Shown here piece by piece: positions 7,995 through 54,899 of a stretch of 64,000 nucleotides of DNA. The position numbers were made by a program, and so were the translations under genes. The notes under the pieces are model-generated. The model was not told the DNA's origin. It did no database searches and saw only the letters and a program-made list of their open reading frames with translations. Origin of the DNA: a virus; the IMG/VR virus record IMGVR_UViG_3300030329_003597, positions 2,676 through 66,675 of that record, one strand, 5' to 3'. Position 1 is the first letter of the stretch. The number at the start of each line of letters is the position of its first letter.

Positions 7995-8126
7995 TTGAAT
8001 AAATATTACTTTAATCCTATAAGAAAAAGAAAAGATCCAGCAATAGAAGCTGAACGTATAAGACTAAACAAATTAAAAAATGAAACTCGAAGTAATAAGA
8101 TTCAACAAAGGGGAAGATTCAACTAA
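7995..8126 (+). CDS. possible small basic protein, 43 aa, TTG start
   Basis: Hand-translated MNKYYFNPIRKRKDPAIEAERIRL...; overlaps the next gene. Confidence 0.35.
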   Translation: MNKYYFNPIRKRKDPAIEAERIRLNKLKNETRSNKIQQRGRFN

Positions 8127-8604
8127 CGGGATATTATTTGATGTAACAGATGAAAGAAAATTTTTATGCTATACTCTCGAAGATGAGAGCCGTGAAGAAA
8201 AAGTTTACGGAGAGACTTGTATACCTGAAGGAGAGTATAAAGTCAAATTTAGAAATGAAGGCGGATACCACGCCAAATACTCTAAAAGATTTGCTGATAT
8301 ACATATGGGTATGCTTGAAGTGTGTGATGTCCCTAATTTTAAATATATCCTTCTTCATTGTGGTAATACTGATGAGGACACTGCGGGATGTTTATTATTG
8401 GGTGATACGCAAGAAAACAACAACATCAAAAAAAACGGTTTCATCGGCAGGTCGACGCAAGCGTATACAAGGGTCTACCCGAAAATCGCCAAAGCGCTCA
8501 AAGAAAAAGAAGAAGTAACTATTACATATAGAGACTTCTCTGAGTGTTTATTATTAACCCCTCTAGATGTAGCTACATTTGTAGGGGCTTCACAACCGCA
8601 TTAA
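8080..8604 (+). CDS. DUF5675-family protein, candidate cell-wall enzyme
   Basis: Motifs CYTLED, TCIPEGEY, VPNFKYILLHCGNT..DTAGCLLLG. Confidence 0.8.
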   Translation: MKLEVIRFNKGEDSTNGILFDVTDERKFLCYTLEDESREEKVYGETCIPEGEYKVKFRNEGGYHAKYSKRFADIHMGMLEVCDVPNFKYILLHCGNTDEDTAGCLLLGDTQENNNIKKNGFIGRSTQAYTRVYPKIAKALKEKEEVTITYRDFSECLLLTPLDVATFVGASQPH

Positions 8605-20963: not shown

Positions 20964-20974
20964 TAATATAAACT

Positions 20975-21385: not shown

Positions 21386-21397
21386 TATATATAGATA

Positions 21398-33500: not shown

Positions 33501-36500
33501 GGGGTACTGTTCAACACCAACACGGCGAGCATCCTGAGACTGGAGCCCCTTTAATGCAGTGGCTAACAAGTATTCCTGCTCAAGGAAGTGTAAGCGGGCA
33601 AATAGCTTGGAGTGGACAAATACGTCAACGATTTCAGATACAATTACTAAATCTACCAGGAGCGTACTGGGGTAATGATACAGGATTTGGCATTCAACAT
33701 TTATCTGCTTGGCATTTAGAGTTTTTTTCTAATACTTCTTTTACTAGTCATATTGCTAGATTTAGTATTGAGGCGAGTAGCAATTTTGATGGAAGTGATT
33801 CTACTTGGAGTGATCCAACTTATGATTGGAGTGAAGGTGACATGAAATATATAACAGGTTTACCTCATGGGGGTCCTGGACAGTGGTATTTTACATCTTG
33901 GTATGAACAAATAGCAGATAATTATGCTGATTTTGCTACAACTGCTCTTGGTTTTGGGCTTGGGGCGGTGGATTATCAATCAAACGCTTGGGTAGAAATA
34001 AATACTCTTAGTCAGTTTGTAGAGTTAGGAGCTGAGTATGGTCATTTTGGATCATTTAAAAGTAAAGCTAATCATGAGTTTGCTGTTGTATATTACGATG
34101 AAAGGGGAAGAGCTGGGTTTGCTAATTATTTAGGAAATTTATATGTTGCTGGATATTCGTCTCAAGATATTGACAGGAATGGTTTTCAAGGTAGGGTAGA
34201 GGTTGAGATACGAATTTTAAATGATCCACCAGAATGGGCTCATAAATATCAAATTGTATATTCTGGAAATACAACGTATGATAATTTTATACAGTATACT
34301 ACTGGTGGAGCAACCGCAGAAAGACCACAAACGGGCGAATATATTACTAGTGATCAAGGAGTAATACACGTTAATTTAGGTTATCTACAGGGTAGTAATA
34401 TGATCTCATACTCTTCTGCTTATGGCGCTGTAAATAAAGAAGGGGGCAAGGATTTATATACATACAAAGAGGGGGATCAATTAAGAATACTTTCATATAG
34501 TCAAGGGGGAAGCGAAGAAAGATTTTATCCTCATGAATATGTTTTTGATATTTTGGGAGTACAACTTACATCAAAAGTACCAAGTGAAAATCCTTATCAT
34601 GCAGCTGTTTATAGTACAGATGGAGATGAAGGCACTGTTGATAGTAATTTAATTGGGCAATTCTTAATGTTAAGAAATAATCCTTCAACAGGAGGGTTTT
34701 CATATGATTCCGTTATTTCTGGCGAGCATTTATGGAATAACGGAACTATAGTTGAAATTTTTTCTAGGAAAAAGGGTAAAGACGAAGATGATAGAATTTA
34801 TTACGAAATAGGTGAAGTCTTTAATGTGATAAGAGATGATAATGGAAATCGTTACCATGAAACAAACCCTATTTTATTAAAAGATGGTGATATTTTTTAT
34901 AGAAAAGTTGCATTAAATTACCCCCCATTTGAAAATGGTCAATATGTTAATATCATTAACAATAACAGAAAAACCCCTAACTTTGTAAATTATTGGTTAG
35001 AATCTGAGACGTTTACCGATAAGCTTCCAGGATCTGATTCTAAAAATTTCGGTAAAGCTACATTTGTAGTTCCAGGAGCTACTGCAAGAAGGAAACTAGC
35101 TTCATTAATATATTCAGATAAAAATAATTACACTGCTAGGTTTAATAAATTTACAAACTTTAATGGTCCTGAATTAAACTTTAAAAATTTACCTAATGAG
35201 TATGGTGCTATAAATTACATATTAAACGATTACGATAATATTCTTGTTATACAAGAAAATAAAGCTAGTTCTGTTCCTGTTAGTAGAAATATTTTATCTA
35301 CAGCAGGCGGTAAAGAATCCTTAATAGCTTCAGATAAAATACTAGGTACGCAAAAGTATTATCCAGGAGATTATGGGGCTGACGGAAATCCAGAAAGCGT
35401 AACTAGAGCTGGAGAAAATGTATATTTTGCTCACAAAGGTAAAAGGCAAGTATATAAATGGAGTAGAGATAAAGGGGTGCAGGTTATATCTGATATTGGC
35501 ATGAAGTCCTATTTCAATAATATTTTTCAAAGGGCTATAGAGGATGAAGCTATGGGGGAAGGTCTAGTTAGAGTTGTAGGGGGATACGATCCATTAAGAG
35601 ATGAATTTATTTTATCCGTTCATAATATCCAAGATTTAAGAGAATATGAAAATGATTATGATCCTTTTGAGGAAGTTATAGATGATGATCCTGGTGGTGA
35701 TGATCCTGGGGGTGGTGACGATACTGATGAGTGTGACGAGTTGTGTGCTGAATTTCTTGTTGAAAGTAATAGCTCAATATTTACAAGCTCTATGGAATTT
35801 CAGCCTGGAGATCAGTTTCAAGTACATTATACAATAACGAATATTGGGGAGGGAATAGGAGGTTTTGCTAATGATGATTTTGCTTCTTATCCATTTAATC
35901 AAGAGGGTCAACCTACTGCTTATATGTTTGGAGACTGGATAGACTTTGTTGTTCAAGATGCAAGCGCTTTTGTTGTCTACCCTTCATATACTTATGATCC
36001 AGATAATGGTTCAATCCCTATAATGGATCAAGACCCAAATATAAATCTAACAACTATAGATCTTGGGTGGACAATAGAATATGAACCACCACTTAATGAG
36101 CAATTAGCATCTTACTATCCACAAAGTATACCTGCCGCTCCAGGTGGATGGCCATTATTATTCCCTGGAAACACGATGTCCCTTACAGTTACTTATCAGG
36201 TACCTATGGATTATACTCCTGGAGATTATAGTTTCTTTACATCGTTTAATTTTGCATCTTACGACATTGATTCATTTAATGCAGGATTTAACTTAAACCC
36301 TGATTATGGAATAGGAGGGTCAACAAGATATTTTGATATCCCCTGTTGTTACACTCAATCAAAAACAATTATTCATCGATTTACTGTCGATAAGCCACCA
36401 ACAGGCGGTGGCGGTCCTACATTGCCTTCAGATGATTATTCAGGCATTATTACTAATAATGATAATAAAAGATTAGGAAGTTCAGATGAAAAATCTATAA

Positions 36501-36646
36501 ATATATACGACACTAACGGTGATGGTGTTGTAAATCCTTTAGATATTATTGCTTCAGATCAAACAGAAAGAGAGAATCGTGAGGAACAAATAAATACCAA
36601 AACTACTGAGATAGAACAAGGAAAGGATAAAATAAGAAAGAAATGA
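30548..36646 (+). CDS. tail stabilization/muzzle protein (P22 gp10-like), N-terminal part with large insertions
   Basis: LNQDSD.R, LYFTDNRNEPKK, RLVYGNY, VVYYDERGR, NPESV...YFAH, GMKSYF, GGYDP motifs. Confidence 0.8.
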   Translation: MIDKVTPQSLNQDSDSRVRPSNQMIDALNLVFEDSFKNTPMTAGGANNDFSGDYAAIKPLPSNRDIEDILDLDDNYFVDDDSRIRVIGSVTDDVLNVIYFFVWSDDVDQMGVWAWDRDAILPGNNLPGSYIKVYTSEKFNFPSDGFVKGDVVHIGQRYESTGAASAFMPATDQTNIGGADISYSYDKNVILYFTDNRNEPKKLDVFRAMTYETYIEQQYDDYDELDFITACPKTPLDPITFEFDIDPNRSISHFVDIPGMIFAYQHLYIGGVESAISTHSKLAVPRGLVSQGVNTGVTVQENVCILTIPEVSPQNENIVNRTKEIEKIRILVRFGNTGVFKTIDEIDPVQLGGLLPGYRFYNDRVLVSVARRTINKNYDNLPRVAQAQTVINDRLVYGNYIEGYDEVDVDATISAIYKPENANFLDLDIKVTEFISEHTNSPVVSIMGNQRVAGFKISLAELPDAIPEGSVFNLSFTCRPERGFHIYNQSRSFHGSSFKGDIRNPEEYASFGEDADFNKNIDGGIVNDFYKNGLSFFGKNEGVKFIDPDDPSGALLFNKWRFDNPTAPAGIEEQEVVYGTSAANPFIIQSGLMQFGLTFSTNYGVMQGGKDLIKEVIAAIFTGSPLPEPAGVPFAQILGEPTTETEYAFDLGLDQNGSKIMVANMNGAQDGLSRKDFVVAVGHKDHIFNNGPENVPPTGYFIINKATVRIGLEVFPDLNQRYPNDPDDMYVGLDIREINDAEIKTCIPHIRKDYMEFASNEDDPYTPVLDENMEGGWQWLNEQALIDAYTWMTSSGAKKFQAVGIWNNLYIDYWKTYSRSYVASYDVETILGTPGSSNNNIFFWRDSEIQDEYGSIQADTGVNLTVGTMLGWLQQQQNIEQQFLPDFSFASQQASETWRFRVGGYLIGPGGNANTPVQLINFSEEIEDKYEDLMQSYIEGNYPTYPDQYNMWEVSEFWSSNMQIKPLCRFSLIDGITSGMGGRRWGTVQHQHGEHPETGAPLMQWLTSIPAQGSVSGQIAWSGQIRQRFQIQLLNLPGAYWGNDTGFGIQHLSAWHLEFFSNTSFTSHIARFSIEASSNFDGSDSTWSDPTYDWSEGDMKYITGLPHGGPGQWYFTSWYEQIADNYADFATTALGFGLGAVDYQSNAWVEINTLSQFVELGAEYGHFGSFKSKANHEFAVVYYDERGRAGFANYLGNLYVAGYSSQDIDRNGFQGRVEVEIRILNDPPEWAHKYQIVYSGNTTYDNFIQYTTGGATAERPQTGEYITSDQGVIHVNLGYLQGSNMISYSSAYGAVNKEGGKDLYTYKEGDQLRILSYSQGGSEERFYPHEYVFDILGVQLTSKVPSENPYHAAVYSTDGDEGTVDSNLIGQFLMLRNNPSTGGFSYDSVISGEHLWNNGTIVEIFSRKKGKDEDDRIYYEIGEVFNVIRDDNGNRYHETNPILLKDGDIFYRKVALNYPPFENGQYVNIINNNRKTPNFVNYWLESETFTDKLPGSDSKNFGKATFVVPGATARRKLASLIYSDKNNYTARFNKFTNFNGPELNFKNLPNEYGAINYILNDYDNILVIQENKASSVPVSRNILSTAGGKESLIASDKILGTQKYYPGDYGADGNPESVTRAGENVYFAHKGKRQVYKWSRDKGVQVISDIGMKSYFNNIFQRAIEDEAMGEGLVRVVGGYDPLRDEFILSVHNIQDLREYENDYDPFEEVIDDDPGGDDPGGGDDTDECDELCAEFLVESNSSIFTSSMEFQPGDQFQVHYTITNIGEGIGGFANDDFASYPFNQEGQPTAYMFGDWIDFVVQDASAFVVYPSYTYDPDNGSIPIMDQDPNINLTTIDLGWTIEYEPPLNEQLASYYPQSIPAAPGGWPLLFPGNTMSLTVTYQVPMDYTPGDYSFFTSFNFASYDIDSFNAGFNLNPDYGIGGSTRYFDIPCCYTQSKTIIHRFTVDKPPTGGGGPTLPSDDYSGIITNNDNKRLGSSDEKSINIYDTNGDGVVNPLDIIASDQTERENREEQINTKTTEIEQGKDKIRKK

Positions 36647-41372: not shown

Positions 41373-44300
41373 ATGGACGAAGAAGAAATTTTACAATACA
41401 TTCAAGATCAGCGTGACAGCGGAGTAGACGACGATAAAATCGGTATGCAGCTGCAGATGAAAGGTGTTGCTGATTTTGACACGTACTTAAAAAAAAAAGA
41501 CGATACTTCGATCTCGCCCTCTGCTTCGGAAGGGGAAGGTACGGAATCAGAGCAGATTACAAGTCAGCAAACAGGACAAGGAGCTGGTTCTTCGGTTGTA
41601 CCTGTAACTCAAGATGATCCTACTGTAAATACTATTGCTAGCGGCGAGCAAGACTCGTCTACTAATTCTATTACTGGTCAGGTAATAACTCCTTGGACAG
41701 ACACCCCTGAAAATAGAGCGAGATTAGAGATCGATCCAATGCATTATGACGGTTTTCAAAAGGGTGCATTTATAAAAACTATGGAGGTGTTAGATCCACA
41801 GTATATAACGCCAGAGATAGAGACATACTTTCATAATTTCGTTTCATCTAACGACTGGTGGTGGAATTCAGTAGGGGCTAATGTCAATGGTATAGCTGAA
41901 GAGCTTGCAAAAAATGAAGAATATCTATCTGCAAACGACATAAGCGTTCCTATGTTGGGAACACCAGTAGCAAGTCCTTATGGAGCTTATGCTCCACCTC
42001 GTAGTGAAGAGGATATAATGTTTGATAAAGTTGCTGCTGTAAAAAAACTTTTAACGCAAAATATTAATGACAGTGCTGTAGATCTTTTACAATCTAGAAT
42101 GCCTGCTGATATAAAGGAGAGCAAAGAAGCGCAGTTATATATGGAGCAATTTATGTTAGAAAATTATGGGGCGATGCTAGATCTAACTGGGGAAGGCGAA
42201 ATAGGTAATACTCCTTTTCTTCAGTTTGATGGGTGGCAACCTAGCACATATTATGGCGCTGCAGGTGGCCCAGGATTTAGGCCTAAATTTTCTGGGTATT
42301 TGGTAGATAGATATGATGCTGCAGGTATTGATTTAATAAATGGAATTTATAATTTCTTTGGTGGGGATGCGAAAACAGTAGTTGAAAATCGAGAGATTGC
42401 TGAAAAAATACGTGCTAATACGCTTCAGTTTGAAACTACTATGGTTGGCAGTTTTACAGATGGAGAGTTTTTGAGAGGGTTAAAACAAATGACAGGATTT
42501 GTAGCTGAAGCGACCCCAGTTATGTCAATATTAATACCAACTGCTACAGTTACTACAGTTGCTACTGGTGGGGTTGCTGCTCCATGGTGGGTTACGGCGG
42601 GCCTAATAGGTTTAGAAGGAGCAACATTAAGTACAACAATTGAAGCCGCTAGAACTCGTGAACACCCTATGTTTAAGAGGTATACGAAAGATGGGGTGAC
42701 TATAGGGTATTATGAAATGATGGAGGCTACTGGTGGTGATCCAGAGCTTATGGCTCAGTATGAATACAGCTTTGATGATTCAGCAAGATTAGGTCACTTA
42801 AGTACTGTCTTTGGAACTGACTTTGTTGCTTCAGGAGTTACATCATTCTTTTTCTTTAAAGCATTAAAAGGCGCTACAACTCCAAAAAATATAGGGCCTA
42901 ATATGAATAGCTGGTGGAATGCTCACCTTGCAAATATGGGTTATTCTGTACCTATTAATAGCGTAACTTCTTCTACCGCAGCTATGGTTCAATATATGAG
43001 TTTGAATCCAGATGCCACTCAAGAAGAAGTTTTTGAAGTTGGATTAGATGTAGCCTTAGGTACTGTCCCTATAACGATAGGGATAACAGGGACTGGTTCT
43101 GCTATTAATTATGCTCATACAAAAGCTACAGTAGCAAATGCTTTAGCTAGAGACGCAGTTGGAAGAAATGGTGGTAATGTTAAAATACATCAACAGCGTA
43201 AAGTGCTTTTAGAAACAATAAGAAAAAGCAAAGATCCAAATAGCGCTGAAGCAATAGCGGCTGAAAGGATGTTGGTTGATTTAGAAGAACAAAGACTCAG
43301 CACTATGACTACTGATGAAAACTTCTATTTGAATATGGATCCAGAAGATTATCATGCTATTGTGGATTTACATAGGAGTTATAATAGTAAACTTCGTCAA
43401 TTAAATCAGCTTGATGATCCTGACTCACCTATAGGTAGAGCCTTACAAAAAGAGCTAAATGAAAATATACAATTAAGGCAAAATATAGAAAAGCTTTATG
43501 AGACGGACCCTGTTGTAGATGCAGATCCTACTTCACCTAAGCCAGATATATTTCAACCTACTATCGAAGGGCCTGATGGGAAGCCAGTACCATTATCATT
43601 TACACCTGGACTATCTAAGTGGTGGTACGTTGAATTCTTTGATAAGTACGGTGATGTAAACATGCTACAAAGAAGTATTATGGAGGCTTTGGACACTGAA
43701 AACCAAGGTGCAAGACTTTCTTTAATGCAAGATTTTGAAGTGTTACAAAAGCTGTCTACCTCAAAAGCCGCTCATCAAATAGAAGAGATGGTAAATCTAA
43801 GATCTCAAGATGGTGGGCTGATAGATCAACTAAGGATTCTACAAAAAAATACACCTCAAGACCTTTATCAAAATCTACCAGAGGTATACTCTAAAGATAT
43901 TATAGGCCTTTATGATAGGTGGGCTGTTTCAAAATTTGCTCCAGAAAGAAACAAGCAAATACTTGCTGATAATAAAACGGAACTTAATGCTTTAAAAGCA
44001 AAAGAAAAGCCAACTTCTGCAGACAAGAAACGAATGGCTTTTCTTGAAGAGAAAATTGCAGAAAGAAGAGGTAGTGGTATGGCTGATGAAGAAGCTGCAG
44101 ACTTCTTAAATTCTTTACCTGAAGATTTGAAATTAGCTTTTGAAAAAGTTAGGGAGGAACACAGATCTATTCAGCAAAACACTAGAGACGCTGCTTTAGA
44201 GTATGGCTTTATAGATCAAGCTATGTACAATAAGCTTCAAGCTAACGCTGAAAACTACGTAACTCTTACTGGTGACGGCATGAAGTCTGTTGATGGTAGT

Positions 44301-46586
44301 ATATCTCTAATTGATAATGATATAGTAGCATCTATCTTCCCACAAAAGTCTCAACAAGGGGGTGTACCTGATGGTTTAAGAAAAGCTTCTGGTCGTAGCG
44401 ATGAAACAGGTAGTATATTAGGCAAGACTATAGATCAAAATACACAGATACATATAGCAGGGCAAAAGAATGTGGCTCTTAGGGGGTTGTACGAGATGCT
44501 GCTAAACAATCCAAACTCTAAACATTATTCTATATCTGACCAAGGTAACTCGTCAGCTAAAAATACAGTAATGGTTTACGTAGATGGTCAACAAAAGTTC
44601 ATCACGTTTGCTAACGAGGCATACGCAAAACCTTTTAAGACTCAAGCCCCTAGCGATAATGAAGCATACGTTAGGTGGGTTCAACCTATGCAGAGGTTAT
44701 TTAGTAATATACCAAAGATGTATACCCAATGGTCTACTTCATTCTGGGCAGGTAATAGTGCAAGAGACTTTCAAGGTTCTTTAGTAAACGCAATAAGTGC
44801 AGCAGAAAAAAAGTTTGGGTATGCTTTATATAACGCTGAAGGCAAACCTATAAATATAAAACAATTAGCAAAAGACTCTCACCTTGTAGGTAGAGGTGAA
44901 TTCTTTAAAGCTTTTAAAGCTATTGCAGCCGATGAGTTTGGCCCTGGAAATAATTATAGGGGTGCAGATAATGCGCTATATCAAGAATATAAAGCTCACG
45001 GAGGAAAAACTGGTTGGGCTTTTAGAACACCTTTAGAAGATCTTCAAAAAACATTACAAAGAGAAGTTGATTCTGGAGTAAAGGGTCAGAAAGCAACAGA
45101 GTGGATGTATAAAAATACATTTGGCCTTATTGAGTCTTTTAATAATACATTTGAAAACGCTTTTAGATTTCAAGTATATAAAGGTTTAAGAAATCAAGGT
45201 GTTGCCCCAGACTATGCCGCAGCTGTAGCAAAAGATGTAAGTATAGACTTTAATAGATCGGGTAATACTACCCCGATGTTAAGCTCTATGAAGTTCTTCT
45301 TAAACGCTAGTTTGCAAGGTGCTGACATGACTGTACAAACTAGTACTGCATTAAGACCTAAAGTAGATTTTGAGGGTAATGTAAGGAACCCTTGGCAGAG
45401 GATGACAAATTCTCAAAAAATTCTTGGAGGAGCTGTTGGGTTTACCTACATGTTAACTCAATGGAACCAAGGCGTTAGTGAAATAGATGATGATGGAGTT
45501 TCTTTTTACGACAAAATACCTGATCAAGTAAAACAAAGAAATCTTATTATTATGCATCCTGGATCTCCAACTGGGGAAAGAACTCTTATCCCTAAGTGGT
45601 ATGGATTTGGCACGTTCAATGATATGGGAATGATGATAGCTGAGGTTCAAAGCGGTGAAAGAAGCGCTAGTGATGCAGCTTGGTTTTGGGCTTCTTCTAC
45701 TGTAACAAATATGTCGCCAGTACACTTTGGAGGTGTAGCTAGCGAAGAAGATCCTACAAAAGGTGTAGATCCAGTAGATCAGCCAGGACTTGTTATCGGG
45801 GCGTTATCTCAAGTAGATCCTTTAGCTCCTATTATTGATGTTGCTACTAATGTAGATGGTTTTGGTAATCAAATAGCTGCAGAAGATAAACCTGGAGAAG
45901 CTAGATCTTCTCAGGGGTATGATTCCCCAATAGTTCTTGAACAGATCGCTCAGGTTTTAAATTCAGCCACTGGTGGTAGCGATGAGGTGAGTGGTGATAT
46001 TGACTTCAATCCTGACAAATTAAATTACTTACTTCAAAATTATCTGGGTAGTACTTATATGATGTTTGGGGATGCTGCAGAAGGAATTTTAGAATTAGCA
46101 GCTGATCAAGACAATCTAGATACGTGGCCTATAATAAAAAAGTTCTATGATGAAGACTACGAAAAATCTGCTTATGGGAATTATTATTCAGCAAAACAAG
46201 TTGTAAATACATACTTGGCTGAATTTGGTAATATAGAAGATCTTCGTGAAAATAAAGATAAGCCTTTGCCGAGTCGTGACGAAAGACTAGCCGACTATGA
46301 AGCTGTAGAGGAAGAAGCGGGGAGTGCTAAACAGAGATATGGTTATGCTATGGCTATGGATGAAATATTTACAAAAATAGATGGTGATATGCAAGAGATA
46401 ACAGAAGCTAAAAAATTATTACAAAATAAACAAGACGCTTTAGAGTATCATATGTTCAATCTTGAAGTGGCAGATGAGTGGGGGGCGCTAGAAGATAAGA
46501 TATACAAACTAGAGCTAGCTGAAATGGAATTAATGGAAAACGCATTAAAACAATATTATAAATTTTACAGAAAACCTGAAGAATAA
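41373..46586 (+). CDS. large ejection protein with LPD38-like C-terminal region
   Basis: 1737 aa; hydrophobic segment near residue 400; ENAFRF..Y, AKDVSIDFNRSG, FFLNASLQG, IPKWYG motifs. Confidence 0.75.
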   Translation: MDEEEILQYIQDQRDSGVDDDKIGMQLQMKGVADFDTYLKKKDDTSISPSASEGEGTESEQITSQQTGQGAGSSVVPVTQDDPTVNTIASGEQDSSTNSITGQVITPWTDTPENRARLEIDPMHYDGFQKGAFIKTMEVLDPQYITPEIETYFHNFVSSNDWWWNSVGANVNGIAEELAKNEEYLSANDISVPMLGTPVASPYGAYAPPRSEEDIMFDKVAAVKKLLTQNINDSAVDLLQSRMPADIKESKEAQLYMEQFMLENYGAMLDLTGEGEIGNTPFLQFDGWQPSTYYGAAGGPGFRPKFSGYLVDRYDAAGIDLINGIYNFFGGDAKTVVENREIAEKIRANTLQFETTMVGSFTDGEFLRGLKQMTGFVAEATPVMSILIPTATVTTVATGGVAAPWWVTAGLIGLEGATLSTTIEAARTREHPMFKRYTKDGVTIGYYEMMEATGGDPELMAQYEYSFDDSARLGHLSTVFGTDFVASGVTSFFFFKALKGATTPKNIGPNMNSWWNAHLANMGYSVPINSVTSSTAAMVQYMSLNPDATQEEVFEVGLDVALGTVPITIGITGTGSAINYAHTKATVANALARDAVGRNGGNVKIHQQRKVLLETIRKSKDPNSAEAIAAERMLVDLEEQRLSTMTTDENFYLNMDPEDYHAIVDLHRSYNSKLRQLNQLDDPDSPIGRALQKELNENIQLRQNIEKLYETDPVVDADPTSPKPDIFQPTIEGPDGKPVPLSFTPGLSKWWYVEFFDKYGDVNMLQRSIMEALDTENQGARLSLMQDFEVLQKLSTSKAAHQIEEMVNLRSQDGGLIDQLRILQKNTPQDLYQNLPEVYSKDIIGLYDRWAVSKFAPERNKQILADNKTELNALKAKEKPTSADKKRMAFLEEKIAERRGSGMADEEAADFLNSLPEDLKLAFEKVREEHRSIQQNTRDAALEYGFIDQAMYNKLQANAENYVTLTGDGMKSVDGSISLIDNDIVASIFPQKSQQGGVPDGLRKASGRSDETGSILGKTIDQNTQIHIAGQKNVALRGLYEMLLNNPNSKHYSISDQGNSSAKNTVMVYVDGQQKFITFANEAYAKPFKTQAPSDNEAYVRWVQPMQRLFSNIPKMYTQWSTSFWAGNSARDFQGSLVNAISAAEKKFGYALYNAEGKPINIKQLAKDSHLVGRGEFFKAFKAIAADEFGPGNNYRGADNALYQEYKAHGGKTGWAFRTPLEDLQKTLQREVDSGVKGQKATEWMYKNTFGLIESFNNTFENAFRFQVYKGLRNQGVAPDYAAAVAKDVSIDFNRSGNTTPMLSSMKFFLNASLQGADMTVQTSTALRPKVDFEGNVRNPWQRMTNSQKILGGAVGFTYMLTQWNQGVSEIDDDGVSFYDKIPDQVKQRNLIIMHPGSPTGERTLIPKWYGFGTFNDMGMMIAEVQSGERSASDAAWFWASSTVTNMSPVHFGGVASEEDPTKGVDPVDQPGLVIGALSQVDPLAPIIDVATNVDGFGNQIAAEDKPGEARSSQGYDSPIVLEQIAQVLNSATGGSDEVSGDIDFNPDKLNYLLQNYLGSTYMMFGDAAEGILELAADQDNLDTWPIIKKFYDEDYEKSAYGNYYSAKQVVNTYLAEFGNIEDLRENKDKPLPSRDERLADYEAVEEEAGSAKQRYGYAMAMDEIFTKIDGDMQEITEAKKLLQNKQDALEYHMFNLEVADEWGALEDKIYKLELAEMELMENALKQYYKFYRKPEE

Positions 46587-47020
46587 TGAGTAAGAAAAAA
46601 ATAAAAGACACCAAGCTTGGCTCTTGGTTGGCAGAAAAAGCACCTCAAGTATTAGGTGTAGTAGGAGACCTTCTACCTGATAGCGGTGGATTAGGCATAG
46701 TAAAAAACCTTATTGATCAAGACCCGAAAGTAGATTCTGAAGAAGCTCAACGCATCATTGATGCAGAGGTTCGCTTTCAAGAGAACGTCACAGAGCGCTG
46801 GAAGGCTGATATGGGTAGTGATGTTAAGTTAGCTAAGATGATACGCCCAGTAACGCTTATATGCCTTATGGGTATGTTTATGATTACTATGTTTATAGAC
46901 AGTATGGATAACGTCGCATTTAACGTAAAGGACTCTTATGTATCTTTGCTTGAGCTACTTATGCTTACTGCTTTTGGTGCATACTTTGCTGGAAGAACTA
47001 TAGAAAAGAAATCTAAATAA
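46586..47020 (+). CDS. putative holin (GTA 3TM-holin-like)
   Basis: ERWKADM.SD..L.K.IRP followed by hydrophobic helices; AYFAGRTIEK end. Confidence 0.7.
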   Translation: MSKKKIKDTKLGSWLAEKAPQVLGVVGDLLPDSGGLGIVKNLIDQDPKVDSEEAQRIIDAEVRFQENVTERWKADMGSDVKLAKMIRPVTLICLMGMFMITMFIDSMDNVAFNVKDSYVSLLELLMLTAFGAYFAGRTIEKKSK

Positions 47021-49236
47021 TGATTCGCAAGCTACTGACAATCACTCTATTAGCCTTACTTACTTTAAGTAATGCTTTTGCTCAACCAGATGATGCTAGT
47101 TGGGTAAATGTAACAATACAGACAGACAACTATGGTGGTGAATCATCGTGGGAGATCTTAAATAATGATAATATAGCAGTAGCAGTTAGTCCACCACTTC
47201 AAAACAATACTCTCGTTAACACAATGGTTTTTTTACCTGCTGGTGAGTATGTATTTGTTATGTATGATTCGTTTGGTGACGGTATATGCTGTTCCTTTGG
47301 GCAAGGCTTCTTTGGGTTAACAAACACTTGTGGGTTAGAAGAATTTAACTATGAATTTGATTCAGCTATAGATAGTATACCATTTGTATTAGAACCTTGT
47401 TTACCAGTATTGCTTGGCTGCATGAACGAAGCTGCGGACAACTACAACCCATGGGCTAATCAAGATGACGGTAGTTGTGAAATCGTTGATTGCGACTCTC
47501 TCGAAACTCAAGTGTCTATGGAGTTAACGCTCGATACATGGCCTGGTGAAACTGGATTTACATTAGTTAATATAGCTAATGGTCAACCGTATGAACAGGT
47601 TATACCTGGTGAGTTTGATTTTGGTGATCAGCTCATTACATACACCTATAACTTTTGTGTGTCGCTAGGTTTTGAATTAATATTGGTGGACGAATATGGT
47701 GACGGATTAAACGGCTCTACTTCAGGAGGAGAAGATGGGGCTTGTGTTATAACTGCCTGTGATAGTGTTATATGGGAGTTAGAAGATTTAGCTTTCACAG
47801 AGTTCGATGATGGTAATACGATGTATTCTGGCGCTATTTTTACAGAGCCTTGTCCACCTGTACCTCCTATAGTGGGGTGTATGGATGATGATTATGTAGA
47901 CTATAACCCTGATGCAACAGCTCAAGACACCTGTATGACATTACACACATGGGGTTGCACAGATCCAGAAGCCATGAATTACGATAGTACTGCAACAATA
48001 GACGACCTAAATAGTCCTTGTAGTATACAGATTATTCTAGAAGATGATGCTGGTGATGGATGGGGCATGTCTGGGATAGGTATGAAGCAAGGTGATCAAC
48101 AATGGTTATTTACTGTAGGTCCTGGCGTATTTTTAGAGTCGTGGGATATTATGCTTGATTCAGACGAGGAGGTGGATATATATTATTTCCAAGATGGAGG
48201 TCAACAATCATCTGCTCAAGAGTTAGCATTCCAAACATTGCATAACTCTGTATATGCAATTAATCAAGCTGGGGATACTTTATTATCTGAAGGTTCTAAT
48301 CCATTCTTAAATAATGGTCAAAGCGCTTTACAACCATTTAGCGCACCAGAATGGAAAGTGTATCATTTCACTCCGTATTGTGGAGATAGCTGCATACCTT
48401 ATATATACGGCTGCACAGATGATACTGCTTGTAACTACGATGCTGAAGCTAATACAAATGTTGATTGCAACTATCCAGTACAGTATTACGACTGCAATAA
48501 CAGCTGTGTTAATGATTATGATGGAGACGGAGTGTGCGATGAGTTAGAGGTAGTAGGTTGTCAAGATCCGACTGCATTTAACTATAACTCAGCAGCTACA
48601 GATCCTGGAGAGTGTATCCCAGTGATATTTGGCTGTACTGATCCTACTCAGTTTAACTACAACCCAGATGCTAACACAGAAAACGGAAATTGTATACCTT
48701 TTATATACGGTTGTATGAATCCAGATGCATTTAACTACAATCCAGATGCCAACACAGAACTTGAAGACTCTTGCATTGAAGTAGTGGTTGATTGCATGGA
48801 CCCTAACGCATTTAATTATAACGAATTAGCCAACACTCCTGATGAAGAAGCTTGCCTATATGATGCTGGATGTATTACAGGGCCTGGTAATCCGTATTGG
48901 TACAACGATGGGTGCTATGCATGGATTATAGATATTGATCCATACTGTTGTGAAGTAGGTTGGGATGATACATGTGCAGAGTTATACTCATATTGCGAGC
49001 AAGGTTGGCCACAAGGTGTATATGATATACATGATGTATATAATGTATATCCTAATCCTGTGGATGATATACTTTACATTCAATCTCCAATAAATACAGA
49101 AGCTATTATATATAATTCTTTAGGGCAGATTGTTGTATCTTCTACTAAGGAAAAAAGAATTGACATGACTCATTTACCCAATGGTATATACAATGTTGTC
49201 ATTAATCATATAAATAAAATAATAATTAAATCATGA
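47020..49236 (+). CDS. secreted Cys-rich repeat protein with T9SS type A C-terminal sorting domain
   Basis: Sec signal peptide; about eight GC(T/M)DPxAxNY repeats; C-terminal VYPNPV...YNSLGQ...LPNGIY...KIIIK. Confidence 0.88.
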   Translation: MIRKLLTITLLALLTLSNAFAQPDDASWVNVTIQTDNYGGESSWEILNNDNIAVAVSPPLQNNTLVNTMVFLPAGEYVFVMYDSFGDGICCSFGQGFFGLTNTCGLEEFNYEFDSAIDSIPFVLEPCLPVLLGCMNEAADNYNPWANQDDGSCEIVDCDSLETQVSMELTLDTWPGETGFTLVNIANGQPYEQVIPGEFDFGDQLITYTYNFCVSLGFELILVDEYGDGLNGSTSGGEDGACVITACDSVIWELEDLAFTEFDDGNTMYSGAIFTEPCPPVPPIVGCMDDDYVDYNPDATAQDTCMTLHTWGCTDPEAMNYDSTATIDDLNSPCSIQIILEDDAGDGWGMSGIGMKQGDQQWLFTVGPGVFLESWDIMLDSDEEVDIYYFQDGGQQSSAQELAFQTLHNSVYAINQAGDTLLSEGSNPFLNNGQSALQPFSAPEWKVYHFTPYCGDSCIPYIYGCTDDTACNYDAEANTNVDCNYPVQYYDCNNSCVNDYDGDGVCDELEVVGCQDPTAFNYNSAATDPGECIPVIFGCTDPTQFNYNPDANTENGNCIPFIYGCMNPDAFNYNPDANTELEDSCIEVVVDCMDPNAFNYNELANTPDEEACLYDAGCITGPGNPYWYNDGCYAWIIDIDPYCCEVGWDDTCAELYSYCEQGWPQGVYDIHDVYNVYPNPVDDILYIQSPINTEAIIYNSLGQIVVSSTKEKRIDMTHLPNGIYNVVINHINKIIIKS

Positions 49237-49433
49237 GTTACAAAACAAACAAAACAACTAAAAAACGTATTGATAAGCTTTTAACTAAGAATGCTCAATA
49301 CCAAGCTGCAAATGTCTGCGTGACAAACAGTAAGACAAAGAGGCAAGAAATTAATAGGTATTGTCGTGTTAATTTTATCAATCCTATTAAAGATATAGAT
49401 TTAGAATTTTATAACCGTGTAATTTTAGCGTAA
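49233..49433 (+). CDS. small basic hypothetical protein
   Basis: 66 aa; translationally coupled. Confidence 0.7.
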   Translation: MSYKTNKTTKKRIDKLLTKNAQYQAANVCVTNSKTKRQEINRYCRVNFINPIKDIDLEFYNRVILA

Positions 49434-49615
49434 TGAAAATAGATTGGATAAACAGCTGGAACGCTGGAAACAAAAAAGAGAAGTATGAGATTAATTTAAG
49501 ATTAGGCACAGTGACTGTGCTTGAAATTTCATTTTGTCCATGCCCTAGTTGTGAAACAAAAGGACATTGTAAGAGATTTAGATTTATGATTTTAAACTTT
49601 GGATTCGAGCTGTGA
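49433..49615 (+). CDS. small protein with CPCPSC motif
   Basis: 60 aa; coupled; ends ILNFGFEL. Confidence 0.7.
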   Translation: MKIDWINSWNAGNKKEKYEINLRLGTVTVLEISFCPCPSCETKGHCKRFRFMILNFGFEL

Positions 49616-50685
49616 TGGTAGAACGAAAGGATCTTACTCCAGTTGTATATGCTCTAATAATGCTAGGGGTGTTTCTTCTTGCATCATTTACAGCCAATGG
49701 ACAAACTCTAAAAAAGACGTTTAAGTTTGCTACATTCTATACTGCCTTCAGTGGTGGTAACTCCATAGCTGATGATAACATATACTCTGTAACTAATGGG
49801 TTACAGACTGATGTATTAGAAACTCCTTTCGATTATTCGTTTACAGCTGGTGTTCGTAAGATTGCTAGGTTTGGGTATGAGAACCGAGCTAATGTATTCT
49901 ATGATGGAACAGAGAAGTCTTATAGCGATGCTGCTACCATTGGTAAAGTAAAAGGGTTTGAATTCTTATTTGAAGCTGACTGGCGTAGACAACAAGGCAG
50001 AAACTTTATTGATCAGGATTATTTCTTACGTTATGTAGCTAAAAACTGGATAGCTAAGGTTGAATATCTACAAGATGGGTTTGCCGATGTTGAGTATTTT
50101 GAGGGATCCCAAAGGCTTCGACTCAATGCTAATGATAAACTTAGCTTTAATATTGGGGTGGCTCAACGTATATCTGAACCATATGGGTATAATCCTTTAG
50201 AAGAATGGGTGTTGTCAAATAATAACATACACTATACAAGTCTTGCTATACAAGAGGGGTATACTGTAGATGTACAAGCTGGTGAATATTTCTCTCCAGA
50301 CGGTGAGCTTGTAGCTAATAGTGTTGATGTATGGGAGCAGGTTGTTATACCTGAAGTTATTGATGATTATGTTGCTAGAAAAAGAAATGAACTACCTAAT
50401 GTATGGAACTATTCTGTAGTTGTTGGGTATGATTACTATAAGTATTCTAAAGAATTTTGGATGCACAATTGGGTAAGTGTAATGCCTTATCATCTTAAGA
50501 CAGATGACGAGTATTCTTACTTTGAAACCACCGAAGGGGGGCAATGGCTAGATTACGGCGCAGGCCTTATCTTTGGGTGGAGATTAAACAAGAGTCTTGG
50601 TGTGTTTTTAGAGGGAAAATACAATAAGTATTGGAATCGAGAATGGCATGACTTCTCAGTTGGATTAAATTACGTAATATTATAA
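49612..50685 (+). CDS. putative outer-membrane beta-barrel protein
   Basis: Signal peptide ending ANG; alternating aromatic beta strands; terminal strand FSVGLNYVIL. Confidence 0.7.
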   Translation: MMVERKDLTPVVYALIMLGVFLLASFTANGQTLKKTFKFATFYTAFSGGNSIADDNIYSVTNGLQTDVLETPFDYSFTAGVRKIARFGYENRANVFYDGTEKSYSDAATIGKVKGFEFLFEADWRRQQGRNFIDQDYFLRYVAKNWIAKVEYLQDGFADVEYFEGSQRLRLNANDKLSFNIGVAQRISEPYGYNPLEEWVLSNNNIHYTSLAIQEGYTVDVQAGEYFSPDGELVANSVDVWEQVVIPEVIDDYVARKRNELPNVWNYSVVVGYDYYKYSKEFWMHNWVSVMPYHLKTDDEYSYFETTEGGQWLDYGAGLIFGWRLNKSLGVFLEGKYNKYWNREWHDFSVGLNYVIL

Positions 50686-50687
50686 AA

Positions 50688-50972
50688 ATGGCAAAGCAGA
50701 TTGGAGAGGATACTAAAGTAACATTTGACCTTAAAACAATAGGGTTGGGTGTAGCAGGGCTTGCAGCCTTAATAGGAATGTGGTTTACGCTACAAGCTGA
50801 TATAGCAGAAGCAAAAGAGTTGCCAGAGCCATTGCCTCCAGACATTACACGTATGGAGTTTGATATGAAGGACCAGCTAGTACGTCAAACAATTATGACA
50901 ACTCAAGAAGATGTATCAGAACTTAAAGAAGATCTAGATCGTATTGAGGAAAAAATAGATAAACTACAGTAA
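50688..50972 (+). CDS. single-pass membrane protein with coiled coil
   Basis: Transmembrane IGLGVAGLAALIGMWF, Pro-rich linker, C-terminal heptads. Confidence 0.75.
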   Translation: MAKQIGEDTKVTFDLKTIGLGVAGLAALIGMWFTLQADIAEAKELPEPLPPDITRMEFDMKDQLVRQTIMTTQEDVSELKEDLDRIEEKIDKLQ

Positions 50973-50974
50973 TT

Positions 50975-51370
50975 ATGAAGCCATTAAAAAGAAAAAAACT
51001 TACAGAAGAAAAAAACGTGCCAATAGGCATTACTGAATTTAAGAAAGGTGATAAAACAACTGAGTATGTGAAGAGTGTTCAACCTGGTAAAGTCCTTAAA
51101 AAGAAATATAAAAAAGGCAAACCAGCAAAATCAAAATATATATCAGAAAAGAAAGCTGAACGTCAGATAAAGCGTAAAAGAAGAAGAGCAGCAAAAGATG
51201 AGTACGGGGGAAGACATTATAGGCTCAGGAAAAAAGCAAAGAAGTTAGAGGATAAGGCTATGAACTTCCCTGGCGAAAAACAAGTATCTAAGAAAAGGTC
51301 TGAGAAACTAATGACAAAAGCTCAAACAAAACGTCAAAAAGCTAGGGATATTAGGGCAAAGAAAAGTTAA
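50975..51370 (+). CDS. highly basic protein
   Basis: 131 aa, very K/R-rich; contains EYGG. Confidence 0.65.
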   Translation: MKPLKRKKLTEEKNVPIGITEFKKGDKTTEYVKSVQPGKVLKKKYKKGKPAKSKYISEKKAERQIKRKRRRAAKDEYGGRHYRLRKKAKKLEDKAMNFPGEKQVSKKRSEKLMTKAQTKRQKARDIRAKKS

Positions 51371-51382
51371 ATAATTTAATAA

Positions 51383-51721
51383 ATGAAACATTTAATCTAC
51401 ATATGTTTATTTGCAATGACATCTCTTGGTATGACTATACCAGATTCAGGAGTATGCGTCGTTGAGTTTAACGCAAGTTTTAACTCAGCAAATAGTGTTG
51501 ATTGGATTGATGAGTTGAGTGATTGTAAAGGGAAGAGGGTGGATATTGTTGCTAGCCCTGAATTACAAAAAGAACATAAAATTGTAGTAGTACCTACTGT
51601 TATCGTGTTTAACGATGGGGAAGAGGTGGAGAGATTTCAAGCAAACATCATGATGCAGCTTGAAGCAACGAAAGATGAGGTTCAGGAAGCGGTTGATGAA
51701 ATTATAATGAGTGCATTCTAA
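51383..51721 (+). CDS. exported thioredoxin-fold protein lacking CxxC
   Basis: VVEFNASFNSAN in place of VDFxAxWCxxC; VVPTVIVFNDGEEVERF; N-terminal signal. Confidence 0.75.
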   Translation: MKHLIYICLFAMTSLGMTIPDSGVCVVEFNASFNSANSVDWIDELSDCKGKRVDIVASPELQKEHKIVVVPTVIVFNDGEEVERFQANIMMQLEATKDEVQEAVDEIIMSAF

Positions 51722-52074: not shown

Positions 52075-54038
52075 ACACGGTTAAGAAAAAAAAAGGCACT
52101 AGAGTTAGGAAGCTAGCTAATGGAGGTAACGGGAATGGCAACGGCGATCCAGTAAAAGAAACTACAGCAACACCCCCTCAAATTATTTATGCTGATTATG
52201 ACGAAGATGTTATAGTTCCAGAAGGTGCTACAGTAGTTCGAACAAACAAACCTCCTGAACCAGGATCTTTTGAGAGTGTATTAAATGATCCATACCTAAC
52301 ACAATATGGTGGCTCAAATTACCAAAGCACACCTTTGGTTGATCTTACTCTTGCTCTTGGCGCATACGGTTTAGGAAGTGCCTTGCCAGCGATTGGAGAA
52401 GGTTTGGCAGCAAGTTGGAGAGGATTAACTGGGGTTGGAGAGAGTGTGTATAGCACTCTTAGTGGGCCTTTTAGTACGGTATTTAGATCACCTTTAGTAA
52501 ACCCAGTAACAGGGAATCCTGTAGCTGGCGGTGCAATAACTGGGGAAGGTTTAATTAACTCATACTTCGCAGCACACGGGGCTATGAACTTGCCTGGGGA
52601 TATAAAGGCCTTTATTGATGACCCTTCATGGGAGGCTGCAGGCGATATTGGGATAGATGTACTTGAGATGCTTCCTGTTGCTATAGACTACTTCCTGCCA
52701 AAATTCTATAGTGCTGTAAAAAATACAGTATCCGCCGAGTCTAAAACCGCTACCGCTGAAACACCCGTAATATCTCTTGAGTCTTCTACTACAGGTGCAA
52801 GGGGAACAGATGCGGTTTTAAATGCTTTAAGAGAACAGGAGTTAAAAAGAATATATACCTCTCATTTCGCTGATCAAGTAAAAGGTGTAAAAGCAAGAGG
52901 TGCTGCAGGTATATTAACTGAAGCAGAAGTTGAGGCAGAAATAGCTACAGTTCTTGCATATCAAAACGAATATCTATCTCACCCAAGATTTTTACAAAAA
53001 TTAGAAGAGGCACAAAAGATTGCGGAGCTTCAAACTCAAGTTATACCTGGAACAAAAATACTCACCCCTCAAGCTAATGCTGCTATAGCTGAGTTTGGGG
53101 GCGTTAGTAAGTTTGGCTTTATGGGTGAGGTAAAAGTTGCAGAAGGTGTTTATGAATGGCAATTAATCCCCTTTGCTGACGCAAAAACTACAGCATTTAA
53201 AATGGTTGAGGAAATGCAGAAGGGTGATGATGTTTTGAGAAATGCAATAGGTAGAGCTAAAGATGAAATATTTACAACTTATATAGATCCAGCAACAGGT
53301 GTATTACAAAAACAAGAAGCAAGAGGTCTGTACACAGCAGGAGGGGAAGCAGTTCAAGGTGAGGGTATGGCTTTTGATGCTGCTGAAATAGCGTATCTAA
53401 ACACACTAAGCCCAGAAGACCTTCTTAAGGTTTTAGCTCACGAAGATAATCACGCTAGATTAATACCATTTTTAGAGTTCACCTTAAATACTTATAACAC
53501 AAGAAGGTTTACTTATTTAGATGATATTTATATCCCACCTGGTGGTAGAGCTGCTACAGACGGTTCTATTAAACCAGGAACGGAGTTGTTTAAAATCTTT
53601 ATGAACCCAAGAATAGGTCTTTCTGAAAGAAATTTAACATACCTGGCGGATGAGGCAGAGTTAGCTGCAAGAATGGGGGAGATAAAAATTAATTGGTGGG
53701 AACAGCAAATGAAAGCTGGGGAAGCTGGATTGTCTATGGATGAGTGGATGTACAATTGGACTCCAGACATGGCTAGGAAAGCATATGAATTGTGGGATCC
53801 AACGGGTGGACATTCACTATGGTTGGTTATTAAAGGAGCTAATGAAAAAGAAAAGTTTCAAAATATAACAAATCTTCTTAATAATTTACTTACACCTTCT
53901 GTGCCCATAGCTGTTGCTGGTGGTATAGGTGTAGCAGCTACGTCTACTGAGGCTGCTATAGAAGAAGCCCCCACGAGTAACAAACGTGGAGGCTTCATAT
54001 CAAAGAAAAAAAGACGTAAAGGCTATAGATTAATTTAA
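52071..54038 (+). CDS. putative virion cargo protein with zincin metallopeptidase motif
   Basis: AHEDNH (HExxH) plus downstream YL...E..AR; GG tags at both termini. Confidence 0.65.
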   Translation: MNTVKKKKGTRVRKLANGGNGNGNGDPVKETTATPPQIIYADYDEDVIVPEGATVVRTNKPPEPGSFESVLNDPYLTQYGGSNYQSTPLVDLTLALGAYGLGSALPAIGEGLAASWRGLTGVGESVYSTLSGPFSTVFRSPLVNPVTGNPVAGGAITGEGLINSYFAAHGAMNLPGDIKAFIDDPSWEAAGDIGIDVLEMLPVAIDYFLPKFYSAVKNTVSAESKTATAETPVISLESSTTGARGTDAVLNALREQELKRIYTSHFADQVKGVKARGAAGILTEAEVEAEIATVLAYQNEYLSHPRFLQKLEEAQKIAELQTQVIPGTKILTPQANAAIAEFGGVSKFGFMGEVKVAEGVYEWQLIPFADAKTTAFKMVEEMQKGDDVLRNAIGRAKDEIFTTYIDPATGVLQKQEARGLYTAGGEAVQGEGMAFDAAEIAYLNTLSPEDLLKVLAHEDNHARLIPFLEFTLNTYNTRRFTYLDDIYIPPGGRAATDGSIKPGTELFKIFMNPRIGLSERNLTYLADEAELAARMGEIKINWWEQQMKAGEAGLSMDEWMYNWTPDMARKAYELWDPTGGHSLWLVIKGANEKEKFQNITNLLNNLLTPSVPIAVAGGIGVAATSTEAAIEEAPTSNKRGGFISKKKRRKGYRLI

Positions 54039-54899
54039 GTAGCTTAATAATAATTTGTGACGACTTGAGTGCTTGAGTCGCTTCAAAGCACGGTCACGTA
54101 TTTGCCTTACTCTCTCGGAAGAGAGATCAATCATCTCTGATATTTCTTCTAATGTCTGAGGGTGTTCAATACCTATACCAAAATAAAGCTGTAAGATTCT
54201 AGACTCTCTAGGGGTAAGGCCTCTTAAAGCTGATTGCACTTCTTGCTTTAGACTTTCATCAACTAATCCTTGATCAGGATCATCAAGTGATGTATCCGCC
54301 ATAAAATCCCCTATCTTACTTGACTTATCTTCATCGCTACTTGCAGGCGCATCTAAACTCATGTGTCTGTTAGCATTTTCGAGAATTATTTTAACATCTT
54401 TAGCCGTCATGTCTAACTCGGCAGCTATCTCTAAAATCGTTGGGGCTCTCTCAAGGTTCTGCTCTAGAGACGCATAGATTCTTTTAATTTTTATTAAAGA
54501 TCCTATTTTGTTTTGAGGCAGCCTCACCAACCTTGCGTGATCGGAAAGCGCAGATAATATATTTTGTCTCACCCACCATACGGCATAAGATATAAACTTA
54601 AAACCACGAGTCTCATCAAACCTTTGGGCTGCACGAATCAATCCCAGATTACCTTCACTAATTAAGTCAGGTAGGCTAAGTCCTTGATTTTGATACTGTT
54701 TAGCAACAGAAACAACGAATCTTAAGTTCGCTCTAGTTAACTTATCTAGTGCCTGCTTGTCCCCATTACGTATCCTTCTAGCTAATTCCGTCTCCTGATT
54801 TATATCAACCATATCCTCCTTAGATACGTCTGATAAATATCTATCAAGGCTAGGTTGTGACCTGTCAGTTATTTGCTGTGTAATTTTAAGCTGTCTCAT
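54030..54899 (-). CDS. rpoD: sigma-70 factor of the Bacteroidota primary (RpoD/SigA) type
   Basis: MRQLKIT start, ANLRFVVSVAKQY, FDETRGFKFISYAVWW, region 4 TLEEI...ERVRQI; no region 1.1, as in Bacteroidota. Confidence 0.93.
   Translation of the reverse strand: MRQLKITQQITDRSQPSLDRYLSDVSKEDMVDINQETELARRIRNGDKQALDKLTRANLRFVVSVAKQYQNQGLSLPDLISEGNLGLIRAAQRFDETRGFKFISYAVWWVRQNILSALSDHARLVRLPQNKIGSLIKIKRIYASLEQNLERAPTILEIAAELDMTAKDVKIILENANRHMSLDAPASSDEDKSSKIGDFMADTSLDDPDQGLVDESLKQEVQSALRGLTPRESRILQLYFGIGIEHPQTLEEISEMIDLSSERVRQIRDRALKRLKHSSRHKLLLSYLN

Follow-up and report, generated by a model that had tools for sequence, protein, structure and literature searches.

Two-component spanins, of which Rz/Rz1 of phage λ and PseT.3/PseT.2 of phage T4 are examples (PMC6139136), pair a helical inner-membrane protein (i-spanin) with an outer-membrane partner (o-spanin), both being phage products encoded beside the holin and the endolysin. 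The corresponding genes sit in mosaic lysis cassettes, in which they adjoin non-homologous endolysins (PMC6139136). In the survey by Kongari et al. (2018, PMC6139136), 91 of 677 phages, about one in seven of those with Gram-negative hosts, presented no recognisable spanin. The present analysis concerns four late genes found in a 64,000-base stretch of viral DNA (hereafter, the window), which belongs to a 66,675-base IMG/VR virus record (IMGVR_UViG_3300030329_003597) rated complete by CheckV. They encode a cargo protein tagged for the host type IX secretion system (T9SS), an outer-membrane-type β-barrel, a small single-pass helix protein and an exported thioredoxin fold. With a probability that we put at roughly 45%, the barrel and the helix protein would complete lysis in the manner of a spanin, the outer-membrane subunit being a β-barrel. 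Encoded beside three kinds of cell-wall enzymes and spread over hundreds of viral contigs, this pair constitutes a concrete and testable candidate for the opening of the outer membrane.

Pairs of a cargo-like protein and a barrel are familiar from the T9SS itself, in which PorU goes with PorV, PorZ with PorQ, and type B C-terminal domain (CTD) proteins with PorP/SprF-like partners. The locus studied here resembles them in that a CTD-bearing protein is encoded beside an outer-membrane barrel, but the phage barrel falls outside these families (0/46 homologues matched the PorV, PorQ, PorP/SprF or PorT models of Pfam and NCBIfam at E up to 1), and its gene order relative to the cargo is not fixed. 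Phage products of the host outer membrane are also known, λ Lom and Bor being examples, and the Pfam family Phage_OMP (PF24653) and porin-like phage entries of BFVD may be added to them. The predicted destination of the barrel is the same, but it has no sequence relation to Lom, Bor or Phage_OMP, which are single, moron-type genes, often of temperate phages.

Regarding T9SS cargo, variable genes of the “Cryophage” of cryoconite holes were found to encode type A cargo, regarded there as unique in its occurrence (Bellas et al. 2020, PMC7468147), and open reading frames (ORFs) with T9SS sorting domains were reported on crAss-like gut contigs (de Jonge et al. 2019, PMC6949934). The cargo of the window shares with those products a phage with a (likely) Bacteroidota host, a type A sorting domain, here behind an N-terminus that by eye looks like a Sec signal, and variability between close variants. 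The printed cargos are enzymes (endoglucanase, GH39) or PA14/BACON proteins and are described as single variable genes, whereas that of the window is a member of a conserved four-gene set and has homologues without the tag in other phage groups. An earlier note on this DNA was aware of no characterised equivalent of the four genes. This was too broad as regards phage T9SS cargo, already in print in 2019 and 2020, but stands for the set as such: within the open-access literature nothing was found on the combination of barrel, helix protein and thioredoxin fold, and this core may represent a mode of outer-membrane disruption that has not been described so far.

In the window, a giant virion protein of 1737 residues and a holin are followed, all on the + strand, by the genes for the cargo (47020..49236, 738 residues), the barrel (49612..50685, 357 residues, with a signal peptide and a likely true start at the ATG at 49615), the helix protein (50688..50972, 94 residues) and the thioredoxin fold (51383..51721, 112 residues). 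From the gene of the 1737-residue protein through that of a 655-residue protein, all junctions overlap or leave gaps of at most 12 nt, and the set therefore probably shares a single late transcript with the holin and virion genes. The holin-like protein (46586..47020, +, 144 residues) matches phrog_3427, annotated “holin”, with E 3.2e-22; its C-terminal half is hydrophobic, with hydrophobic windows at residues 82-107, and its homologues carry a holin annotation in 5/8 matched phage records. Its stop overlaps the start of the cargo gene. This is the tightly packed run just after the holin that the earlier note had described, and each product which it listed, that is, a signal-peptide, Cys-rich protein with a type A sorting domain, a predicted outer-membrane barrel, a single-pass coiled-coil protein and an exported, redox-dead thioredoxin, has its counterpart in the analyses given below, the single-pass protein being described here as helical. 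The routes of export on which it relied are also legible in the sequences, as Sec-type signals, a T9SS type A domain, a barrel of the type handled by the β-barrel assembly machinery (BAM), an inner-membrane anchor and a thioredoxin fold of probable periplasmic location.

The AlphaFold2 (AF2) model of the barrel reached a predicted local distance difference test (pLDDT) score of 77, and its top VIA matches were outer-membrane-type barrels (Omp33, Z 10.6; KdgM, Z 10.2; Tsx, Z 9.8), with Foldseek returning NanC at E 1e-5. The closest folds are the small substrate channels of 12-14 strands, namely KdgM, NanC, Tsx and OmpG (Z 9-10), while FadL, TodX and a FadL homologue (Z 7.2-8.0) remain below these small porins (about 10). 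The N-terminus is hydrophobic at residues 6-30, the protein has no Cys, an insertion of about 75 residues occupies approximately positions 189-263, and in the strand at residues 116-125 aromatic residues alternate with conserved charged ones. The family consensus ends in an aromatic F and the window copy in L; with the signal peptide, the fold and this aromatic end, the family has the features of a BAM substrate. At the sequence level the barrel belongs to no family of Pfam or NCBIfam, porin families included; its one clear relative in BFVD is an unnamed viral protein (E 1.3e-25, 23% identity), and the ESM Atlas search returned unnamed viral clusters and weak leads only. Relatives are nevertheless numerous, amounting to 465 in viral contigs and to at least 3841 protein clusters in metagenomes. 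Among 185,579 species genomes only 7 matches were obtained, all on contigs of metagenome-assembled genomes (MAGs) of mixed taxa, and these contigs are most likely phage DNA mis-binned into unrelated genomes. The barrel family is thus restricted to phages. The seven contigs (L103-L109) measure 4-120 kb and bear the MAG names Parvibaculum, Nitrosopelagicus, Rickettsiales, Maricaulis, Sphingobacteriales and Flavobacteriales.

The 94-residue helix protein has a short N-terminus, a single hydrophobic span at about residues 17-36 and then a conserved, acidic, helical C-terminal part. This is the topology of an i-spanin, with a predicted anchor in the inner membrane and the conserved helix presumably in the periplasm, and the size is near that of the T4 i-spanin PseT.3 (117 residues; PMC6139136). 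In other groups of phages homologues of 208-230 residues are found, which have longer C-terminal parts. Those of the third group described below (213-230 residues; for example L118:5942-6586) also have a cytoplasmic N-terminal extension of about 75 residues, in which a repeated helix-hairpin-like motif was noticed by eye, and they score 26.5 bits against the coiled-coil family DUF7365, just under its cut-off of 27.

The thioredoxin-like protein scores below the curated cut-offs as a single sequence (18.6 vs 23.5 bits), but the profile of its family matches solved thioredoxins of the PDB with E 6.5e-8. It has in common with the thioredoxin families PF00085 and TIGR01068 the fold and the cis-Pro loop, which is retained across an alignment of 46 members. 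It differs from them in its export signal, a signal-like N-terminus being present in all 23 displayed rows of that alignment, and in the absence of CXXC from every one of these rows, an invariant N-A..N motif taking its place. The protein is probably a redox-dead subunit located in the periplasm.

The constancy of the set was assessed in the best 80 of the 465 viral-contig relatives of the barrel (group 1), which are the closest relatives rather than a sample of the whole family. The genes for the helix protein and the thioredoxin fold follow that of the barrel in all 66 loci with at least 2.5 kb of downstream sequence, and all four genes are present on one strand in each of the 49 well-flanked loci, as would be expected from the earlier note, which had treated them as a module. 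Two orders only occur in these 49 loci, cargo-barrel-helix-thioredoxin (30) and barrel-helix-thioredoxin-cargo (19). The set stays together while its place in the genome shifts, being found either after a giant protein and a holin or between portal and capsid genes. Over the 80 loci, a holin or lysin-type gene lies within the fetched flanks in 29, the portal-capsid placement is seen in 26, with no recognised lysis gene within 6 kb, and neither feature is found in the remaining 25. Genes for the portal, for crAss tail ring proteins and for fibres of the LamG and collagen-like types are among the neighbours; the tail ring proteins, encoded in some relatives, mark part of this phage group as crAss-like. 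Within group 1 the barrels are 54-97% identical and keep many invariant charged and aromatic residues.

More distant relatives were sought with a profile among 1.84 billion representatives. This gave 413 matches at E ≤ 0.001, including about 20 full-length clusters, two of which (P0271 and P0258) led to further viral loci, whereas the scans with P0294 and P0369 gave nothing. The barrels of group 2 (loci L128-L158) are about 31-40% identical and stand at the head of a conserved order in which they are followed, in every case, by the helix protein (91-92 residues), and then by the thioredoxin fold, an exported protein of 169-196 residues, a Peptidase_M15_3 enzyme and a holin-type gene. In the 22 loci having at least 3.5 kb downstream, the M15 enzyme is present in 13 and the downstream holin-type gene in 15, while five others have the layout of the window, with a giant protein and a holin preceding barrel, helix protein, thioredoxin and small protein. 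A holin-type gene is therefore adjacent in 20/22, none being seen in the other two. The small fourth protein (about 175 residues) is encoded in 19/22 and missing in 3/22. It consists of a signal peptide, a single domain whose counterpart in the cargo family of the window is the first one (63 aligned columns, hhalign Prob 95.5, E 1.4e-8), and a tail which by eye is like the short tails of some cargos; none of 16 such proteins matched the sorting-domain family PF18962, even at E 10.

In group 3 (loci L111-L127) the helix-protein homologue is encoded just before the barrel, thioredoxin and cargo homologues were not detected, and a PF00959 lysozyme gene lies 0.8-1.6 kb upstream in all 16 loci having upstream sequence. 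As group 3 retains the helix protein and the barrel only, the minimal conserved pair consists of one inner-membrane and one outer-membrane protein. A further locus (L110) has barrel, a 208-residue helix protein, thioredoxin and M15 enzyme in a row. With the DUF5675 protein found near the set in some group 1 loci, the M15 peptidase and the GH24-type lysozyme bring to three the unrelated kinds of cell-wall enzymes encoded near the core. Taken over all groups, the barrel and the helix protein, usually accompanied by the thioredoxin fold, are the constant, phage-only core of the set, and the gene bearing the T9SS tag in the window corresponds to its variable fourth member.

In the mechanism that we propose, the infected cell itself would install this phage-only set in its envelope. 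The barrel would be delivered to the outer membrane by Sec and then BAM, the 94-residue protein would sit in the inner membrane by its anchor and extend its conserved helix into the periplasm, and the thioredoxin-like protein would be a periplasmic subunit devoid of redox activity. The fourth protein would be exported as well, and in the phage of the window the type A sorting domain would hand it over to the host T9SS. Through contacts between the proteins, barrel and helix protein would act as a functional analogue of a two-component spanin in which an integral β-barrel takes the place of the lipoprotein, with accessory roles for the thioredoxin fold and for the GDG-motif/cargo protein.

Such a role in lysis is ranked first for several reasons. 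The set is a fixed unit (66/66 and 49/49 loci of group 1), its layout in the window is compact, with overlapping junctions from the giant virion protein and the holin onwards, the helix protein has the shape of an i-spanin, and the barrel family is confined to phages. The core pair adjoins holins and three unrelated cell-wall enzymes, a position corresponding to that of spanins in lysis cassettes (in the window the holin lies one gene upstream, and a lysis gene is close in 20/22 loci of group 2 and 16/16 of group 3). In addition, no lipoprotein-type ORF is available near the holin of the window, since nothing credible with a lipobox was found on either strand at 40-55 kb, and no spanin family turned up in the PHROG scans. 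The earlier note had proposed superinfection exclusion, adhesion to new hosts, nutrient capture or interference with secretion and gliding; a lysis step is favoured over early exclusion, adhesion and nutrient capture because the constant part of the set adjoins an endolysin, a holin or both in three divergent groups. Differences from spanins are, nonetheless, considerable. The outer-membrane partner is a 357-residue integral barrel without lipobox instead of a small lipoprotein, the phage set includes two further exported proteins, and the barrel is highly conserved. Because its outer-membrane subunit is not a lipoprotein, the set is placed outside the spanin families, and the proposed likeness is one of mechanism and not of kinship.

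Several observations weigh against this role. The link with lysis genes is partial in the group to which the window belongs (29/80 loci), and adjacency is weaker evidence here than it would be in a bacterium because the genes sit in long late operons. The feature that defines o-spanins, an outer-membrane lipoprotein, is absent, and the conservation of the barrel, with 54-97% identity within group 1, goes well beyond what is usual for spanins. The periplasmic part of the 94-residue protein comprises only about 58 residues, which is short for bridging the periplasm. Finally, a role in lysis leaves unexplained the fourth protein, which is large, lectin-like, exchangeable and directed to the surface.

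The cargo of the window starts with a Sec-like N-terminus, as judged by eye from its basic beginning, its hydrophobic stretch and, near residue 21, a site of the A-x-A type, and the mature protein contains 37 Cys and seven Cys-bounded, NYN-type repeats (regular expression search). Its type A sorting domain (residues 676-738; 49045..49233, +) passes the cut-offs of both PF18962 (35.9 bits, cut-off 27) and TIGR04183 (28.9 bits, cut-off 23). As the match (residues 676-735) covers profile positions 1-68 of 75, the CTD is not notably short, contrary to how the earlier note had qualified it. The AF2 model, built from 33 homologues (pLDDT 75), has three β-sandwiches, the Cys-bounded repeats, a small helical domain rich in Cys and, at the C-terminus, one more sandwich. 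The latter (residues 670-738) superposes on the CTD of RgpB with Z 8.5 (root-mean-square deviation 1.8 Å, 62 aligned residues), on that of PorZ with Z 8.2 and on that of the translocon-bound cargo NucA (8glk_D) with Z 8.0 (2.1 Å, 66 aligned). The first sandwich resembles CBM60 (Z 7.5). Foldseek with the whole cargo gave low-TM, multi-domain matches only, and no enzyme fold was recognised in either whole-protein or domain-level structure searches. From these features it would seem that in this lineage the cargo travels through the host T9SS to the cell surface or beyond.

The tag is less constant than the core. PF18962 was matched at E ≤ 0.01 by 44 of 55 non-redundant homologues of the cargo, with 34 of the 55 scoring at least 27 bits. 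The other 11 gave no match; their tail is shorter, at about 45 residues, and they also escaped a custom CTD hidden Markov model. By eye only, the short tails of all versions of the fourth protein resemble the last strands of the sorting domain. The N-terminal modules vary as well, MAM domains being found in 5/55 and a CBM48-like module in 1/55, and, among the 34 loci with a barrel sharing 77-97% identity with that of the window, 14 have a replaced N-terminal third of the cargo (29-35% identity). The T9SS-based surface module of the earlier note is therefore real in the window as regards the tag, but not as a constant of the family, given the 11/55 cargos and the 16/16 small proteins of group 2 without a match.

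These properties of the fourth protein underlie the best of the other explanations, which we nevertheless consider unlikely. The barrel would anchor or partner the exported protein on the infected cell, perhaps through its C-terminal tail, and the complex would mask or bind the phage receptor, for superinfection exclusion or for keeping the progeny off debris, with the helix protein and the thioredoxin fold as assembly or anchoring factors. A genuine type A sorting domain, supported by both cut-offs and by the fold match, is what such a complex would require, and so are β-sandwich, carbohydrate-binding-like and MAM modules devoid of a recognised enzyme fold. The swapping of the N-terminal third between loci with near-identical barrels is expected of a protein facing a variable surface. 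A homologue of the first cargo domain accompanies the trio even in group 2 (19/22), and the tail shared by all versions points in the same direction. This explanation is kept alive by the features that fit a role in lysis poorly, namely the large, exchangeable and surface-directed fourth protein, the short helix part and the unusually conserved barrel. On the other hand, the set belongs to a late operon and has genes for lysis as neighbours, and early expression is the rule for exclusion genes. Group 3 has the helix protein and the barrel only and 3/22 loci of group 2 lack the fourth protein, none of the 46 barrels matches a PorV, PorQ, PorP/SprF or PorT model at E up to 1, and none of 16 small fourth proteins of group 2 matches PF18962. 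A complex prediction with the mature parts of the core (barrel 32-357, thioredoxin 20-112, helix protein 36-94) scored 0.01 against a mark of 0.32, which says nothing either way.

The lysis and the surface-complex explanations could both be true. In its most ambitious form, which is speculative and doubtful, the proposal would be that β-barrel, short helix protein and dead thioredoxin make up a new envelope-spanning machine that opens the outer membrane for the phages of marine Bacteroidota and possibly for others. Some lineages would have recruited the host T9SS to bring a hypervariable, lectin-like protein to the surface of the dying cell, so coupling lysis to receptor masking or progeny release. 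The set would in any case be a large and conserved example of a lytic phage employing host Sec, BAM and T9SS to fill every layer of the envelope, and its variable surface member could have consequences for phage-host dynamics in the ocean.

It is quite improbable that the barrel is an auxiliary uptake channel, that is, a phage porin raising the flux of nutrients or ions, with the other genes as unrelated neighbours. The fold is indeed nearest to that of small substrate channels, the strand at residues 116-125 with its alternation of aromatic and charged residues would suit such a function, and the porin-like entries of BFVD and the family Phage_OMP offer phage precedents. What it leaves unexplained is the fixed linkage to the helix protein (66/66) and the endolysin adjacency in three groups, and the barrel sequence matches no porin family. 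Least probable of all, to the point of being hardly credible, are ordinary virion components (the Cys-repeat protein being for instance a fibre or decoration), since, despite the portal, tail ring and fibre genes near the set in relatives and a modular, variable cargo reminiscent of receptor-binding proteins, every displayed or inspected homologue of cargo, barrel and thioredoxin has an N-terminal export signal, so that these proteins would leave the cytoplasm, where tailed virions assemble, the barrel has the fold of a membrane β-barrel, and no PHROG structural family matches any of the four proteins.

The source of the set is likely an uncultured marine phage of Flavobacteria-type bacteria. 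The window terminase (12282-14402, +) is 42-48% identical to those of its nearest cultured phages, which infect Flavobacterium, Cellulophaga, Tenacibaculum and Maribacter; a host of the Flavobacteriia type is therefore likely, and fits the use of the T9SS. No cultured model with the set is at hand, as searches of 50,697 phage records at the DNA and protein levels returned nothing for the region, the cargo or the barrel. The genome looks lytic, in agreement with the earlier note, which had recognised neither an integrase nor a repressor: a PF00589 search of the whole record found no tyrosine integrase, and the Pfam and PHROG scans, which covered ORFs from 90 residues upwards, revealed no integrase or repressor family. 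In the window no tRNA was found and no Rfam family matched at gathering score; promoter-like sites numbered 47 vs 46.7 expected, an uninformative figure obtained with a consensus that is not that of Bacteroidota.

The sole candidate cell-wall enzyme recognised in the window is a DUF5675 protein of 174 residues (8080..8604, +; PF18925, E 5e-28), encoded far from the holin. A preprint on lysin discovery terms DUF5675 C82-peptidase-like (10.64898/2026.04.11.717860), and homologues lie near the envelope set in 10/80 loci. Three small ORFs are interspersed with the set on the + strand. Two of unassigned function separate cargo and barrel genes, one basic (49233..49433, 66 residues), whose cluster occurs in 14 loci, and one containing Cys (49433..49615, 60 residues), whose cluster occurs in 39 loci and often adjoins the barrel gene. 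The third, a very basic ORF of 131 residues with 50 K+R (50975..51370), lies between the helix-protein and thioredoxin genes; it had no tblastn match in any of 101 related loci and stands outside the conserved set.

The genome is organised in two blocks, one on the + strand (about 4-54 kb) with terminase, portal (14435-16861, +), virion proteins and two giant proteins, and one on the - strand (54-64 kb) with a sigma-70-type factor, a primase-helicase and nucleases. The giant late proteins, of 2032 residues (30548-36646, +) and 1737 residues (41373-46586, +), may be internal proteins that are ejected. An LPD38 domain is present in the second, which along roughly half of its length shares 23-27% identity with large proteins of Vibrio and Stx-converting phages. 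The sigma-70-type factor (54030-54899, -, 289 residues) has regions 1.2, 2, 3 and 4 all present, and its gene, the first of the replication module that runs leftwards, is convergent with the late operon, whose end it faces. A protein of 198 residues (10404-11000, +) contains a GroES/Cpn10 co-chaperonin domain in its C-terminal half (PF00166, E 4e-8; phrog_13932, E 6.5e-52). Tandem paralogues of about 130-140 residues, with no assigned function, are encoded at 20550-22141 (+) and have counterparts in many of the related loci, where their cluster (c2) comprises 95 ORFs in 52 loci and often adjoins the envelope set.

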